From positions 1 to 55,132 of IMG/VR virus record IMGVR_UViG_3300031369_000003: 55,132 nt of DNA. The stretch is one strand, 5' to 3'. Below the pieces are notes generated by a model. That model did not search any database and had not been told where the DNA came from. It saw only the letters and a program-made list of their open reading frames with translations. This document shows, piece by piece, positions 3,147 through 27,343 of this stretch. The translations under genes and the position numbers were made by a program. Source of the stretch: a virus. Taxonomy: Duplodnaviria > Caudoviricetes. Numbering within the stretch: the stretch's first letter is position 1; every line of letters starts with the position of its first letter.

Positions 3147-3335
3147 TTAATCCCGGTCGTATCTCTTTAACGCTTCTTCGGTTATTACCCAATCTCTTCC
3201 GATTTTATAAACCTCGTCCGAATTGAACTTTTTACGATGAACATCCTGCCTTATACGACCTTTTGTCATCCCTAGTTGCCGTTCAGCTTCGGCTATGGTT
3301 ATAATATTATTATCTTTCATCATTCGCCTTCCCAA
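3147..3335 (-). CDS. Small HTH DNA-binding protein, last gene of the IbrAB cassette
   Basis: ITIAEAERQLGMTKGRIRQ...KIGRDWVITEEAL, excisionase/MerR-like HTH. Confidence 0.8.
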   Translation of the reverse strand: MGRRMMKDNNIITIAEAERQLGMTKGRIRQDVHRKKFNSDEVYKIGRDWVITEEALKRYDRD

Positions 3336-3949
3336 GCCATTGAAAATTCTTTATCACCAAACATTTCTGCCAATCCGGTGATCTGTTTAAGCCTCAACAC
3401 CTCATCGGCATCCATACCTAGTTCTCTGGCGATTTTTTCATCATTCCAGTTTCGCCGTGATAACTCAACCACAATATCGCTCATTGCAGTTACAACGTGT
3501 TTCCCCCTAGCTCTGTTGTGTCGAATGGTTGACGCTATTCTATCAGCCTTTTCTTTCCTCTCGTCGTTAATAGTGGTTACTGGCAAATATCCTTTAATTC
3601 GTTTTTTTACTTCTTCGCATTCTTTACCCACTCGATTTCGATGGAACCCGTCAACCACTTCGATATGGTTGTCGTCTTCCCAAAAACCAACTATGGGTTG
3701 AGTATATCCGTCTTCACTTATCGAATGTTGCAAAAGCTTCATTTCAGGAGGCGCCACGGTGTTAGGGTTATAATCGTTTGCTTCCACTTGATCGGCCTCA
3801 ACCCAAATGACGCAATCAACCGGTTCGTTAACAAACGGGCTTATTTCATGTAATTTTATTCTGACTGCATTTAAAGCCGCAATTTTATTTTTCTCTGGTA
3901 ATTTATTCAGCTCATTTACTAACGCAGACAACGCATCACTGACTCCCAT
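3320..3949 (-). CDS. ibrB: IbrB-like ParB/Srx-domain protein
   Basis: ANDYNPNTVAPPEMKLLQHSISEDGYTQPIV...VVDGFHR...STIRHNRARGKH. Confidence 0.88.
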   Translation of the reverse strand: MGVSDALSALVNELNKLPEKNKIAALNAVRIKLHEISPFVNEPVDCVIWVEADQVEANDYNPNTVAPPEMKLLQHSISEDGYTQPIVGFWEDDNHIEVVDGFHRNRVGKECEEVKKRIKGYLPVTTINDERKEKADRIASTIRHNRARGKHVVTAMSDIVVELSRRNWNDEKIARELGMDADEVLRLKQITGLAEMFGDKEFSMAWEGE

Positions 3950-5133
3950 TTCTGTTTCCTCCGTTTCATGATTTTTAAATATTTATCGTATGCCTCGCTT
4001 TTTGTCATGGTAAAAGATAATCCTTTACACCAATAATCATTTTTTAACAATGATTTACAGATCCTGCGCCATGATGGAACTTTCTTCCCAGCTTCGTCTT
4101 TTGCGTCAGCTTCATCAGGTATCCCATTCGGATAGCCCCGATCATACCACCACTTTAAAAATACCGCTATCTTATTTTCAAAATGATTCCTTGATTTATC
4201 TGGCATACTACATAATAATAATTTGGCAAACGATTCCCAAGTATGCCCATCAGGTTTATTGATTTTGATATTACCCAAAACATTTCCGGATTCTCGGACG
4301 TATAACGCCCCAGAATTGGCACCATTAACTCTAGCGACCACTTTACCCCATGTCTCTGGCTCAATAAGATGAAACAGCCAGAGCCCCTTCCGTTGATCGT
4401 CGCCGTAAGGTTGACATATCCTCATTTGGTGGATTGACAACCCAGCTAACTGCATATAATCGTAAAGTTTGTTGTAAGGCTTATTAAATTTACCGTTGTA
4501 CGTCCAAATGTCTTGCGTTTTCCAGTCATAGATCGGATAAATGTTGTAAAGTCCGTCGCCGCACCAAGTGGTATAGCCTTTGTCGTCGAATTTACTTTTA
4601 TCTCGAACTATTGTCCTGTAACGATTCAAAGATTCATCTGCACGAATTCCAACAAAGCAAGCCGTTAAATCGCCGCCTCCGTACCATTTTCCGAATTGTG
4701 GTACAAATTCCTCAAACTCCATTTTGTAGTGATAAAACGGAAAATAGCTTTGGTCTGTAATTGCCATTTCGGGCGGCTGTCTAATCCAGTCTTTTCCCGG
4801 TTCCCAACATGTCCATTTTGGTTCATACTGGCTAACGGCGTTTCGCAATGCAATAGGTAACGCAACCCAATAAGGTTCGATATGATCTTCATATAGCTTA
4901 TACATATACTGTATATGCTCAATGGTTATTTTGTATTGACCCTCTAAGTCCAAAAGCAAAACTCCAACTTTTTGATTTCGCTTTATTGCTTCGTCCATTA
5001 CCAAATGGAGCATAACGGATGAGTCTTTCCCGCCGCTAAAACTAACATAAATTTTCCTAAACGTGTCAAACGTCCATTCTATTCGCTGCTTTGCAGCTTC
5101 ATAGACATTTATTCCAATCGGGATTTTAGCCAT
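3919..5133 (-). CDS. ibrA: IbrA-like PAPS-reductase-family (PP-loop) protein
   Basis: SFSGGKDS PP-loop, GIRADESLNR, YPIYDWK, MRICQPYG, PSWRRICKSLLKND. Confidence 0.88.
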   Translation of the reverse strand: MAKIPIGINVYEAAKQRIEWTFDTFRKIYVSFSGGKDSSVMLHLVMDEAIKRNQKVGVLLLDLEGQYKITIEHIQYMYKLYEDHIEPYWVALPIALRNAVSQYEPKWTCWEPGKDWIRQPPEMAITDQSYFPFYHYKMEFEEFVPQFGKWYGGGDLTACFVGIRADESLNRYRTIVRDKSKFDDKGYTTWCGDGLYNIYPIYDWKTQDIWTYNGKFNKPYNKLYDYMQLAGLSIHQMRICQPYGDDQRKGLWLFHLIEPETWGKVVARVNGANSGALYVRESGNVLGNIKINKPDGHTWESFAKLLLCSMPDKSRNHFENKIAVFLKWWYDRGYPNGIPDEADAKDEAGKKVPSWRRICKSLLKNDYWCKGLSFTMTKSEAYDKYLKIMKRRKQKWESVMRCLR

Positions 5134-5501
5134 TCTTTTACCTCCTCCTCGTCAATTTTGAAAACCTTCCAATCCACAACTTTACAAAAATATCGTTGTT
5201 TGTTATCTTTAACATCATAAATTTTATTATCGCCGAGAACATACTCGGCATATATCCCGCGCGACCCTTTGGAATTGGCTTGGGAATAATCTTTTTTGAA
5301 ACGCAAAAACTCACGTTTGTATTTATATTTAGGGTCGAATCCGGTAATCTCGGCAACCCATCCAGAAGATGGCATCCCACCGAATACAGCCGTTCCGGTT
5401 CCGGGTATTAAATCGTTGCCCAATCTAGTCCATATCCTCATTTCCTGCACAACGTTGTCCCCTATTAATTCAATTTGTAAAACCGCTTTCAAGAAAATCA
5501 C
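5109..5501 (-). CDS. Hypothetical protein translationally coupled to ibrA
   Basis: Overlaps ibrA start; WVAEITGFDPKYKYKREFL motif. Confidence 0.7.
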   Translation of the reverse strand: MIFLKAVLQIELIGDNVVQEMRIWTRLGNDLIPGTGTAVFGGMPSSGWVAEITGFDPKYKYKREFLRFKKDYSQANSKGSRGIYAEYVLGDNKIYDVKDNKQRYFCKVVDWKVFKIDEEEVKEWLKSRLE

Positions 5502-6284: not shown

Positions 6285-6315
6285 ATTATAGCATTGTCAC
6301 GTTAGCGTGACAATG
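6285..6315 (-). promoter_or_regulatory. Sigma-A promoter TTGTCA-N17-TATAAT with perfect 10-bp-arm palindromic operator
   Basis: CATTGTCACG-ttag-CGTGACAATG at 6292-6315 covers -35 and spacer. Confidence 0.8.
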
Positions 6316-6349
6316 GGTCTTTAGACCTATTTATAAAAATAAGCCGGAA

Positions 6350-6637
6350 TCACCGGCTATAATGTCTGTTTTCAGCATCCAATGCGGCTTTAACGGCTGG
6401 ATAATGCGGATTATCTGGTGTTACCCTAATTTTGTCGCGTTCGTGATAGTCCGTTGTGGTATCGCTACTATTAATAACGTTTAACCCTTCAATTTTTGGA
6501 AATCGGCCATAATCTTTTGCATAAATTGTAATCGTCCCGGCGGGTTGATTGATCAGCTCCCCTGGTGAGTATCGCGCCCGGTATAGTTTGCCGTCAAGCT
6601 TTATGCCGTTCCACAAAAATTTTAACATTTTAATCAT
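6350..6637 (-). CDS. Hypothetical protein
   Basis: ORF whose stop lies in a CCGG hairpin terminator. Confidence 0.7.
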   Translation of the reverse strand: MIKMLKFLWNGIKLDGKLYRARYSPGELINQPAGTITIYAKDYGRFPKIEGLNVINSSDTTTDYHERDKIRVTPDNPHYPAVKAALDAENRHYSR

Positions 6638-6690
6638 CCTTTCTATTTTCAGTCCCCTTCTTAGGATTTCGGATTTTTACTCTAATTTAG

Positions 6691-6942
6691 TTATTTTTCA
6701 ACTAGTCCCCAAAAATTCATCACGCACCGTTGAGGATTGATATTTTTTTGACTGATTAACCACGCCGGAATCCAAATGATACGATTACCAACTTCGTTTT
6801 GTTCGCCGAGTATACATTGAGATTTCGGGAACCACTCGTGAGTTACGGTATTAATACCGTTGAGGCTAAAGTCAAAACAATACGCTTTATCTGTTTCTCC
6901 ACTGGGAGCGAAACCGTATTCGTAATATTTTTTCATTTCCAA
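6691..6942 (-). CDS. Hypothetical protein directly downstream of the twister ribozyme
   Basis: ETDKAYCF...WFPKSQC...IWIPAWL; RBS aaggtg. Confidence 0.7.
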   Translation of the reverse strand: MEMKKYYEYGFAPSGETDKAYCFDFSLNGINTVTHEWFPKSQCILGEQNEVGNRIIWIPAWLISQKNINPQRCVMNFWGLVEK

Positions 6943-6954
6943 ATCACCTTTTCC

Positions 6955-7013
6955 GCCGGGCTTGTGACCGGCTTTGCCGCATTAGCACCGGTTACCCGGT
7001 GTCACTCTGCGAT
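6955..7013 (-). ncRNA. Twister ribozyme, circularly permuted (type P5-like)
   Basis: Minus strand CGCA GAGUG A CACCGG guaa CCGGUG C UAA UGCG GC aaa GCCGG UCACAAGC CCGGC: P1, P2, P4, UAA cleavage triplet and both pseudoknots present. Confidence 0.9.
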
Positions 7014-7017
7014 TAAT

Positions 7018-7287
7018 TTACGCTGACTGGTCTTTTTCCCACGAACGTTCGAACTCATCAGTTAATTTTTTACCTTCTTTAATCGTTGTATCTAATGCAT
7101 TTAATACGGCATTCATAACAGCTTCATACTTTTCAAGGTAAATATATTTTTGTTGAACTTCTTTCGGAGCATCTTCAATCCAAATAGGTTTTTCCATATC
7201 TTTCGTTAATTCATTCCATTCATGATGGGCCATTTGGTAGTTTGTTACCGCCTCAATTATACAATCTTGTTTTTTTGTTGTTTTCAT
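7018..7287 (-). CDS. Hypothetical small protein
   Basis: First gene after the 7324-7352 promoter; RBS aagggga. Confidence 0.7.
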   Translation of the reverse strand: MKTTKKQDCIIEAVTNYQMAHHEWNELTKDMEKPIWIEDAPKEVQQKYIYLEKYEAVMNAVLNALDTTIKEGKKLTDEFERSWEKDQSA

Positions 7288-7323
7288 TTCAAATATCCCC
7301 TTTCGTTTCTTGACTACATTTAT

Positions 7324-7352
7324 ATTATAACGTATATACTTCTATACGTCAA
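7324..7352 (-). promoter_or_regulatory. Sigma-A promoter TTGACG-N17-TATAAT with ACGTATA boxes
   Basis: -35 at 7347-7352, -10 at 7324-7329; inverted ACGTATA pair. Confidence 0.8.
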
Positions 7353-7480
7353 TAGTTATTTCAAAGTATTTTCATTTATTTTTTTTATGCCATTTACCTG
7401 CCGTTTTAGTTTACTTCTATATATATACATTTTTGCCTTGCCAAAATCGGCCATCCGGCAACCCGCGACATATTGTCATT

Positions 7481-7544
<64 letters not shown>

Positions 7545-7549
7545 AAAAT

Positions 7550-7578
7550 TTGACGCATAAACGTATATATGATATAAT
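7550..7578 (+). promoter_or_regulatory. Sigma-A promoter TTGACG-N17-TATAAT of the RHH gene
   Basis: Near-consensus with TGn extended -10; ACGCATA-a-ACGTATA boxes. Confidence 0.8.
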
Positions 7579-7603
7579 TAGAAAAAACATTTGGAGGTCT
7601 ATT

Positions 7604-7759
7604 ATGCCAAAATTTACAACTTATTTGCCCGACGAAATGATTAAATACCTACGCGACAAGTCGCACGAAGAAACGCAGGATGGGAAATATACCAGCGCGG
7701 CCAACATCATTCAGCGTTTGATCGCATCTGACATGGAAAAACAAAAAAGCAAAAAATAG
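7604..7759 (+). CDS. Ribbon-helix-helix (CopG/Arc-like) repressor
   Basis: MPKFTTYLPDEMIKYLRDKS...SAANIIQRLIASDM; GGAGG RBS before ATG at 7604. Confidence 0.8.
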   Translation: MPKFTTYLPDEMIKYLRDKSHEETQDGKYTSAANIIQRLIASDMEKQKSKK

Positions 7760-7807: not shown

Positions 7808-7836
7808 TTGACGTATAAACGTATACATGGTATTAT
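7808..7836 (+). promoter_or_regulatory. Sigma-A promoter TTGACG-N17-TATTAT with ACGTATA-a-ACGTATA boxes
   Basis: Near copy of the 7550 promoter. Confidence 0.8.
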
Positions 7837-8921: not shown

Positions 8922-8945
8922 AAAAACCGCCTTTCGGCGGTCTTT
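8922..8945. terminator. Bidirectional terminator between island and late activator gene
   Basis: aaaaaccgcc-tttc-ggcggtctttt between convergent genes. Confidence 0.75.
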
Positions 8946-9490
8946 TATTGTATTAGTAGTTGCATTTTTTGTAGGGCGGAATCTCGTTTTCTAAAACATT
9001 CTGCGCGACTGTAATGCACCATCCCTGCTATCTTGCTCCAGTTATATCCTTTTATATAGTAGTACTCCACAATGGTTTTTTCCTCCGCCGTTAACTGATC
9101 GAGCATAATGTCAATCACTAAAATATCATTTTGTACCCTGCTCAAATCGCACTTTAGCTTTTTAATCGTCGCATCTTGGTCTAACAGTTTTTGCACTTTT
9201 TTGAGTACCGGATCGCTTGTCCCTGTCCCATGCGGCATACCGTCATTGTTTGCCGCAGCTAAAGCTGATCGTCGATTCAGTTCCTCCTCTAGTCTTTTGC
9301 TAATAATATTTTTGGCAGTCAACATATCATTGTAAGCCCTTAGAGTTGCCTTGATATCCATGCCGCTGTCAAGCTCAACCATGATACAATTATCCATTTT
9401 AACATTGAGGTTACCGTCAATGTCTGCCATAAATCGCCGCTCTATTAGATTATATAATTTGGTTTTTATCATCTTTGCCCTCCTTGACAT
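8945..9490 (-). CDS. ArpU/RinA-family late transcriptional activator (true start may be internal)
   Basis: DGMPHGTGTSDPV and C-terminal sigma-region-4-like LDQLTAEEKTIVEYYYIKGYNWSKIAGMVHYS. Confidence 0.85.
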   Translation of the reverse strand: MSRRAKMIKTKLYNLIERRFMADIDGNLNVKMDNCIMVELDSGMDIKATLRAYNDMLTAKNIISKRLEEELNRRSALAAANNDGMPHGTGTSDPVLKKVQKLLDQDATIKKLKCDLSRVQNDILVIDIMLDQLTAEEKTIVEYYYIKGYNWSKIAGMVHYSRAECFRKRDSALQKMQLLIQ

Positions 9491-26185: not shown

Positions 26186-27343
26186 GTGAAAGGTTATAAA
26201 CAAAAACGAGGAAAAAATTCGTATAGGCTCGCCGTCTACGTTGGGCTTAAGCCGGATGGAACAAGCGATTACATCAAAGAAACGATTCACGGTAGCAATA
26301 AAGAGGCAGACAAACGGCTTGCAGCAATGGCAACCGAAAACGACAGGGGCGAATATACTGCGCCCACGAAACAGACATTTGGTGAATATCTGCTCACGTG
26401 GCTAGAATATATCAAAGGGCAAGTATCTGAAGGGACATACGAAAACTACTATGGATATTATAAAAACCATATCAAGAATGACTTAATTAGCCGAGTAAAT
26501 ATTGCCAAATTAACCGCTTTTGATTTACAAAAATTTGTTAGTAAGCTTGCCAAAAGCAAGACATTAGTCAAATATAGACCAAACAATATAATATCGCCAA
26601 AAACTGTCAAAGAAATTTTATGCATGATTAAAACGGCGCTCAAGCAAGCTTGTATATGGCAAATAATCAAAGATAACCCGTCACAATATGTCACGCCTCC
26701 AAAATCAGTCAAATACCATGCTAAAGTTTTTGACGATGAAGAAATCGTTAAATTTTTAGAAGCGGCTGAAAATGATAGGTTTTATTTTTTATTTTTGATA
26801 GCCATTTATTTAGGGCTTAGGAAAGGGGAAATTCGGGGCTTACGTTGGCAGGATATAGACACAAGCAAATGTAAATTAACGGTCGCGCAATCGGTAAGAC
26901 GGGGCGGCTATGAATCTCGATACAAAGACCCTAAGACTGAAAACAGTAATAGCACTCTGCCATTTGAAGAATGGATGGTACCATTATTTTTAAAACAAAA
27001 AGCGGCAGTTAATATAATGAAATTAAAATACGGGAGTCATTGGAACGATAACGATTTAGTTTTTCCATCTATAACGGGAAACCCAACCAACGTAAATGTA
27101 TTGACAAAACATTTTTGCGATATAATGGATAAGGCGGGGCTAGAACATATCAGATTCCATGATTTAAGGCATTCGTGCGCCACATTATTATTAACCGCTA
27201 ACGTCCACCCTAAAGTAGTACAGGAACGCCTCAGACACGCCACGATGGGAACAACGATGGATCTATACAGCCATGTTATTCCAAAAGTCCAAGAAGAAGC
27301 AAACCGGACTATGAGTAAAATATTAAATATAAAAAGTAAATAG
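26186..27343 (+). CDS. int: Tyrosine integrase
   Basis: GLRKGE (R), FHDLRHS (HxxR), RLRH...TMDLYSH (H, Y). Confidence 0.95.
   Translation: MKGYKQKRGKNSYRLAVYVGLKPDGTSDYIKETIHGSNKEADKRLAAMATENDRGEYTAPTKQTFGEYLLTWLEYIKGQVSEGTYENYYGYYKNHIKNDLISRVNIAKLTAFDLQKFVSKLAKSKTLVKYRPNNIISPKTVKEILCMIKTALKQACIWQIIKDNPSQYVTPPKSVKYHAKVFDDEEIVKFLEAAENDRFYFLFLIAIYLGLRKGEIRGLRWQDIDTSKCKLTVAQSVRRGGYESRYKDPKTENSNSTLPFEEWMVPLFLKQKAAVNIMKLKYGSHWNDNDLVFPSITGNPTNVNVLTKHFCDIMDKAGLEHIRFHDLRHSCATLLLTANVHPKVVQERLRHATMGTTMDLYSHVIPKVQEEANRTMSKILNIKSK

Follow-up and report, generated by a model that had tools for sequence, protein, structure and literature searches.

A type-P5 twister ribozyme between two small genes of a tailed phage: sequence, fold and predicted message processing

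The minus strand of a tailed-phage contig (IMG/VR record IMGVR_UViG_3300031369_000003) carries, between two small genes, what we regard as a genuine and probably active self-cleaving ribozyme of the type-P5 twister family, predicted to split a short phage message into two unlike molecules. From the sequence, we put the probability of this reading at roughly 0.8. The stretch of DNA analysed, 55,132 nt in all, is referred to below as the window.

The window record is about 78% complete according to CheckV and has a G+C content of 39.7%. By its gene content the contig is a temperate tailed phage, with PHROG matches that include the following:

26186–27343, plus strand: integrase
8945–9490: sigma-like regulator
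370–1521: TerS-like and HNH-like genes

Further PHROG matches correspond to repressor-like, anti-repressor, DnaC-like loader, methyltransferase and VRR-NUC genes and, among structural and lytic functions, to TerL, portal, major head protein, tape measure and endolysin. The best identity found for TerL is 38.9%, to an uncultured phage record; it is 32–35% identical to its counterparts in phages of Caldibacillus, Butyrivibrio, Bacillus and Clostridium, and a Bacillota host is possible.

Family assignment and anatomy of the ribozyme

The sequence-only reading had taken this segment for an intact, circularly permuted twister and had pointed to the Rfam twister-P5 covariance model as a check, and the model agrees. 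When both strands of the 55-kb window were compared with all 4227 Rfam families using cmscan, Twister-P5 (RF02684) matched positions 7011–6956 of the minus strand with a score of 62.5 bits (E 1.1e-10; gathering score 37.6); the match spans positions 1–58 of the 58 positions of the model and is not truncated. It is the sole Rfam match of the window at the gathering score. The only other RNA family reported at E ≤ 1 was REN-SRE (E 0.89), a match that we take as due to chance, and no second ribozyme of the hammerhead, pistol, hatchet, twister-sister or HDV-like kind was found by Rfam in the 55-kb window at E ≤ 1. A separate search of the record with RF02684 gave the identical place and score, with none of 14 control genomes matched. 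All the upper-case positions of the Rfam consensus are identical in the window copy (GCAGAG.G, UAAUGC.GCA and CGGUC.CAAGCCCG), and the unconstrained minimum free energy (MFE) fold of 7040–6925 recovers P1, P2 and P4, with no competing structure. The elements of the ribozyme, all on the minus strand, are:

6955–7011: type-P5 twister ribozyme (Rfam match 6956–7011; C6955 adds a fifth P4 pair)
7011–7008 with 6981–6978: P2, CGCA with UGCG, 4 bp (cmscan structure line and MFE fold)
7007–7002: internal-loop strand GAGUGA (sequence)
7001–6996 with 6991–6986: P1 hairpin, CACCGG with CCGGUG, 6 bp, GUAA loop (cmscan and fold)
6985–6982: junction, C6985 followed by U6984, A6983 and A6982 (sequence and cmscan alignment)
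6983–6984: predicted scissile dinucleotide, between U6984 and A6983 (UAA at 6984–6982 aligned to model positions 30–32)
6977–6976: G6977 and C6976 after P2, followed by AAA (cmscan alignment)
6972–6968 with 6959–6955: P4 hairpin, GCCGG with CCGGC, five contiguous pairs, loop UCACAAGC (cmscan and fold)
7005–7003 with 6964–6966: pseudoknot T1, pairs G7005–C6964, U7004–A6965 and G7003–C6966 (sequence)
6977–6976 with 6960–6961: pseudoknot T2, pairs G6977–C6960 and C6976–G6961 (sequence and alignment)

The three helices drawn in the sequence-only reading are thus present, pair for pair, in both the cmscan alignment and the fold, and the cut that it had placed between U6984 and A6983 falls on the same step in the alignment. 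The P4 loop carries the partners of both T1 and T2, and the P1 segment has a folding energy of −11.3 kcal/mol. P1 is closed by GUAA, without a P3 insert, and the elements come in the order P2'-P1-P2-P4; since P1 is closed, the copy is of the permuted type. Altogether, the element is a type-P5 twister ribozyme by every defining feature that can be tested from sequence.

The twister class goes back to Roth et al. 2014, as cited in PMC6765202 and PMC5408937. As described in the Micura review (PMC5408937), P1, P2 and P4 are essential whereas P0, P3 and P5 are optional, two pseudoknots are formed and the conserved nucleotides lie in L1 and L4; the scissile step is U-A, with a conserved A adjoining P1. 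Compared with RF02684, the window copy shares the full-length match, the helices, T1 and T2, the loop nucleotides, the U-A step and the closed P1, and its two chain ends lie at the P5 position, as in the family. It differs by a mismatch at the base of P1 and by the lack of an evident P5 helix, nothing of substance. More specifically, cmscan places A7002 opposite C6985 at the base of P1, beside the cut site; this non-canonical pair is the sole blemish of the copy and counts against activity. The flanks show no evident P5 helix (flank duplex of −7.9 kcal/mol, z −1.7). Both traits are within the natural variation of the viral copies described below.

Flanking genes and presumed transcription unit

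The strand of the ribozyme is the coding strand of both flanking open reading frames (ORFs). The surroundings, again on the minus strand, comprise:

7324–7352: sigma-70-like promoter consensus, TTGACG-17-TATAAT, 11 of 12 matches, upstream of the 89-aa ORF
7018–7287: upstream ORF, 89 aa, no family (no PHROG or Pfam match)
6691–6936: downstream ORF, 81 aa from ATG 6936, no family (no PHROG or Pfam match)
6350–6637: third small ORF, 95 aa (phrog_18160, a PHROG of unknown function, E 3.4e-11)
6342–6358: terminator-like hairpin followed by a T-run, overlapping the stop of ORF 6350–6637

The stop codon of the 89-aa ORF (7020–7018) lies 6 nt ahead of the ribozyme, whose first base, 7011, is therefore where the sequence-only reading had put it, 7 nt after the stop. 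On the other side, the Shine–Dalgarno sequence (SD) AAGGUGA (6950–6944) begins 4 nt past P4. ATG 6936 is a more likely start of the downstream gene than TTG 6942, given the position of the SD and the fact that the homologues begin with MKKYY. A P5 helix hiding the SD was considered, since the MFE fold pairs CCAGUCA (7030–7024) with the SD region, but it was rejected: the flank duplex of the window is not significant (z −1.7), and the 121 listed viral copies pair their flanks no better than shuffled sequences do (mean z −0.21).

Both flanking ORFs are rare. In a protein database of 5.8 billion clusters, each has relatives in two other clusters, with 74% and 52% identity for the 89-aa ORF and 42–47% identity for the 81-aa ORF, the latter relatives starting with MKKYY. 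In the Atlas, the clusters nearest to the 81-aa ORF are viral hypothetical proteins, and the 89-aa ORF retrieves viral hypothetical clusters together with helical look-alikes that lie below the naming bar. The region 6300–7400 was found in one sequencing run, a DNA run that may stem from the source sample, and in no RNA run.

The scans for promoter and terminator signals are consensus matches only, and they are close to shuffle expectation (29 promoter-like sites against 21.5 expected and 7 terminator-like sites against 5.7 expected), so that they are not evidence of function. Within these limits, no terminator-like site was found between the promoter-like site at 7324–7352 and the ribozyme, the first being the hairpin at 6358–6342, after which comes another promoter-like site (6313–6285). 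Three small genes (7287–6350, about 1 kb) seem to make up the transcription unit, with the terminator-like hairpin at its end, and the PAPS-reductase-like (3919–5133) and ParB-like (3320–3949) genes further downstream probably lie outside it. The accessory operon proposed in the sequence-only reading is therefore plausible, but narrower than implied, the consensus scans delimiting a three-gene unit.

The region ahead of this unit has features of its own. A perfect-looking (AGT)16 microsatellite (7496–7544, 95% matches) occupies the divergent intergenic region, and 5 nt separate its end from the −35 hexamer of a promoter-like site on the plus strand (7550–7578); a change in its length could shift upstream elements relative to that site. 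Three promoter-like sites within 500 nt, at 7324–7352 (minus), 7550–7578 (plus) and 7808–7836 (plus), all start with TTGACG(Y)ATA and contain ACGTATA-like repeats between their hexamers. A shared operator was considered, but the palindrome count (6, against 2.19 expected) is reached by 6 of 100 shuffles and is not significant. An Arc-like repressor gene (phrog_2639) is found in 7433–7759, just downstream. The only DNA match of the window to cultured phages, Clostridium phage CS266P3, is in the promoter region (82.5% over 62 nt, 7321–7382).

Comparison with other viral copies

A strict P5-type core pattern matched at least 122 stretches in viral contigs; after removal of duplicates, the matches listed comprise 122 copies, including that of the window, and 106 distinct cores. 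In these cores, the middle pair of T1 is U–A in 88, A–U in 6, G–C in 7, C–G in 1, a wobble in 2 and a mismatch in 2, so that the T1 pseudoknot clearly covaries; the bases of T2 were fixed by the search pattern and hence lie outside this test. The sequence-only reading had noticed a compensatory change in T1. The U–A pair is indeed present, but it is nothing special to the window copy, being the pair of 88 of the 106 listed viral cores. P1 has at least five pairs in 105 of the 106 listed cores and P4 at least four contiguous pairs in 84 of 107 listed viral copies, with many covarying pair types. Covariation thus maintains the pairing of T1, P1 and P4 across these copies, and the window copy conforms to it. 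The base before UAA is G in 71 listed cores, U in 23 and C in 12, the window belonging to the last group, and the A...C arrangement at the base of P1 recurs elsewhere among the viral copies, for example in the fourth one of contig L011. Flank pairing, i.e. P5, has a mean z of −0.21 over 121 listed viral copies and falls below −2 in 5 of them.

The position of these ribozymes relative to genes is regular. Of the 82 listed copies flanked by 400 nt or more in each direction, 65 have an upstream same-strand ORF (50 aa or longer) whose stop falls between −12 and +10 nt of the first base of the ribozyme; the corresponding figures are 127 of 1640 for positions chosen at random and 17 of 82 when the strand is mirrored. 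These counts are rough, since many of the loci have a high G+C content and abound in spurious frames: 21 of the 82 listed copies are enclosed by a frame on their own strand and 46 by one on the opposite strand. Similarly rough, the count of an SD and start codon within 120 nt downstream, the start having to open at least 40 codons, gives 69 of 84 listed copies, at a median distance of 32 nt from ...CAAGC (23 in the window). When frames of at least 60 codons were considered, their stop lay between −40 and +13 nt in 79 of 87 listed copies, and it directly abutted or lay inside the ribozyme in 54 of 87. The offsets of these 54 stops include −4 (n = 12), −3 (n = 19), −1 (n = 8) and +7 (n = 15), the last corresponding to copies whose stop is the UGA within the conserved GAGUGA; the offset in the window is −9. 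Judged from these sequences, the tight packing of stop, ribozyme and SD in the window is the usual layout in viral copies.

Several contigs among the matches listed contain four or five twister copies about 400–600 nt apart. The contigs with copies (L003–L124) include such arrays, for instance at 2501–4632 of L011 and 1525–3464 of L034. The twister most like that of the window among those listed is in contig L058 (87% over 71 nt, into the SD region); this contig (1224–1287, 1523–1590 and 2557–2621) has two extra twister-like stretches that the strict pattern missed and is probably an array with variant copies.

The twister is, as far as these sequences tell, not conserved with its neighbouring genes. 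Nucleotide similarity between the window and the other listed twister loci is confined to the ribozyme itself, and a tblastn search with six window ORFs against 122 other twister loci listed gave no match. Relatives of the 81-aa ORF were found at one weak locus in viral contigs (L002), whereas none were found there for the 89-aa ORF, and a genome scan for relatives of the flanking ORFs found none. A metagenome scan returned one locus with a relative of the 89-aa ORF (L205, 52% identity), but the roughly 370 nt past this relative gave no Rfam match at E ≤ 0.1. A tie between the ribozyme and the PAPS-reductase/ParB module was also considered and rejected. Relatives of the PAPS-reductase-like gene were found in 110 places, of which 80 loci were kept; the pattern found a twister near none of the 80, and an Rfam scan of the 16 closest loci (143,021 bases) found no ribozyme and two DUF805b RNA matches only, the remaining 64 loci being covered by the pattern alone. 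The nucleotide homology of these loci to the window extends over 3316–5373 only, well short of the ribozyme. Since the ribozyme is absent both from L205 and from the PAPS-reductase loci, synteny offers no argument for a gene-specific role, and the ribozyme behaves as a module in unrelated gene contexts.

The PAPS-reductase/DUF3440-like and ParB-like pair (3320–5133, minus strand) is itself a module present in at least 80 viral contigs at 36–87% identity, a mosaic block that is separate from the ribozyme unit. In two related phage contigs, L126 and L136 (5733–5767 in each), the ParB-like gene is closely followed by a DUF805b RNA motif (RF02914, 45.7 bits against 35.6); cmscan found no DUF805b match in the window.

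These data bear on an alternative that we consider improbable, in which the twister is active but is a modular, freely exchanged phage RNA element that does not tune these genes. Its benefit would then be generic, the 5'-OH and cyclic-phosphate ends being handled differently by host decay or sensing, or it would persist with little benefit. This is what one would expect from the failure of the six neighbouring ORFs to match any of the other listed twister loci, from the end of homology to related phages at 5373, short of the ribozyme, and from the L205 relative of the upstream ORF, which has no ribozyme beside it. Twister and hammerhead ribozymes are also described as sharing gene associations, near phage genes, for a reason given as undetermined (PMC6765202). 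However, the regular placement on the coding strand between a stop and an SD argues for a selected role within the message.

A decayed or very slow relic, no longer cleaving at a useful rate, is less probable still, and we hold it to be very unlikely. The A/C mismatch beside the scissile step, the undetectable P5 and the presence of a single copy in the phage, rather than an array, go in this direction, but all the strongly conserved positions and the helices are intact, the score is 25 bits over the cut-off, the A...C arrangement recurs in other viral copies such as that of L011 and P5 is optional in the family (PMC5408937). Finally, we give practically no credit to a chance resemblance or to two GC-rich hairpins acting only as terminator or stabiliser: the segment is 64% G+C in a contig of about 40% and its hairpins alone could stabilise a message, but an E value of 1.1e-10 against all families on both strands effectively refutes this idea. 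The conserved nucleotides outside the helices are in place, as are T1 and T2, and neither hairpin is followed by a U-run or listed by the terminator scan.

Predicted processing of the message

Returning to an active twister that acts on its own message, we propose the following sequence of events. Transcription would start near 7320, and the message would run through the 89-aa ORF, the ribozyme, the 81-aa ORF and the 95-aa ORF. P1, P2, P4 and both pseudoknots would fold, after which the 2'-OH of U6984 would attack the phosphate that precedes A6983. This would turn the message into two separate molecules with different ends: (i) an upstream product containing the 89-aa ORF with its stop codon and ending in the P1 hairpin followed by CU, with a 2',3'-cyclic phosphate; (ii) a downstream product starting with a 5'-OH at AAUGCGGCAAA, a stretch of 11 unpaired bases that is followed by the P4 hairpin and then by the SD and the 81-aa ORF. 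Because their ends differ, the halves should have different fates, and the most likely effect of cleavage, as predicted from the sequence, would be to uncouple the stability and translation of the two parts of the message. Transcription from the promoter-like site, cleavage and the effect on expression are what we infer here from the match to the family in sequence and fold, the strand and the packing between stop and SD.

The anatomy of the locus fits the processing of a polycistronic mRNA: the ribozyme shares its strand with the genes and lies downstream of a promoter-like site from which no terminator-like site separates it. Such processing is a standing published hypothesis for the hammerheads and twisters of bacteria and phages (PMC6765202, PMC3088659). 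PMC6765202 states that twister and hammerhead ribozymes may process polycistronic transcripts, and Perreault et al. 2011 (PMC3088659) report that clustered prophage hammerheads cleave in vitro within native transcripts of about 2 kb, and these authors proposed that long phage transcripts are cut into mRNAs of gene or operon length. The window twister resembles these intercistronic ribozymes of phages and prophages in its coding-strand position and in its neighbours, small phage genes whose identity varies from case to case. Unlike the arrays, which flank genes on both sides and reach four or five copies in other viral contigs (L011/L012, L034/L053), it is a single ribozyme, in a unit that appears to have its own promoter-like and terminator-like signals.

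The glmS ribozyme of Gram-positive bacteria offers a point of comparison. In Bacillus, the 5'-OH product of glmS is degraded, with a role for RNase J1. The two ribozymes are unrelated in sequence or fold, and glmS depends on a metabolite cofactor and is located in a 5' UTR, whereas the window twister sits between two cistrons and we know of no ligand for twister. They are alike in that the window twister is also predicted to leave a 5'-OH on a downstream coding fragment; for glmS, self-cleavage within the mRNA leaves this end on the downstream coding fragment and changes its fate (PMC6765202). In a Bacillota host, the glmS precedent would predict loss of the downstream half of the message.

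A more elaborate version of the processing scheme, to which we assign a low probability, is that of a translation-gated switch. Here the P5 permutation and the abutting stop would make the predicted cleavage depend on translation of the upstream gene and would cap both products with a hairpin. A cut in the middle of the ribozyme may favour the P5 permutation in phages: the stop codon and a 3' cap formed by the P1 hairpin would stay with the upstream message, and the downstream one would open with the P4 hairpin just ahead of the SD. Because the upstream stop abuts the ribozyme or lies inside it (54 of 87 listed copies; the gap in the window is 6 nt), a terminating ribosome would melt P2 and T1, and the element would be a processing switch rather than a constitutive cutter.

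Note that the literature already covers the twister family and its circularly permuted form, the association with phage genes and the idea of message processing. A literature search for twister self-cleaving ribozymes with phage terminase found nothing, and one for type-P5 twister variants found nothing on phage biology, judging from the listings. The window copy is clean but ordinary, the same layout being found in more than 100 viral contigs. Its practical value lies in the presence of a single ribozyme in a compact, apparent three-gene unit with promoter-like and terminator-like signals, a simpler setting than the multi-ribozyme arrays for asking whether cleavage alters the expression of the flanking genes.
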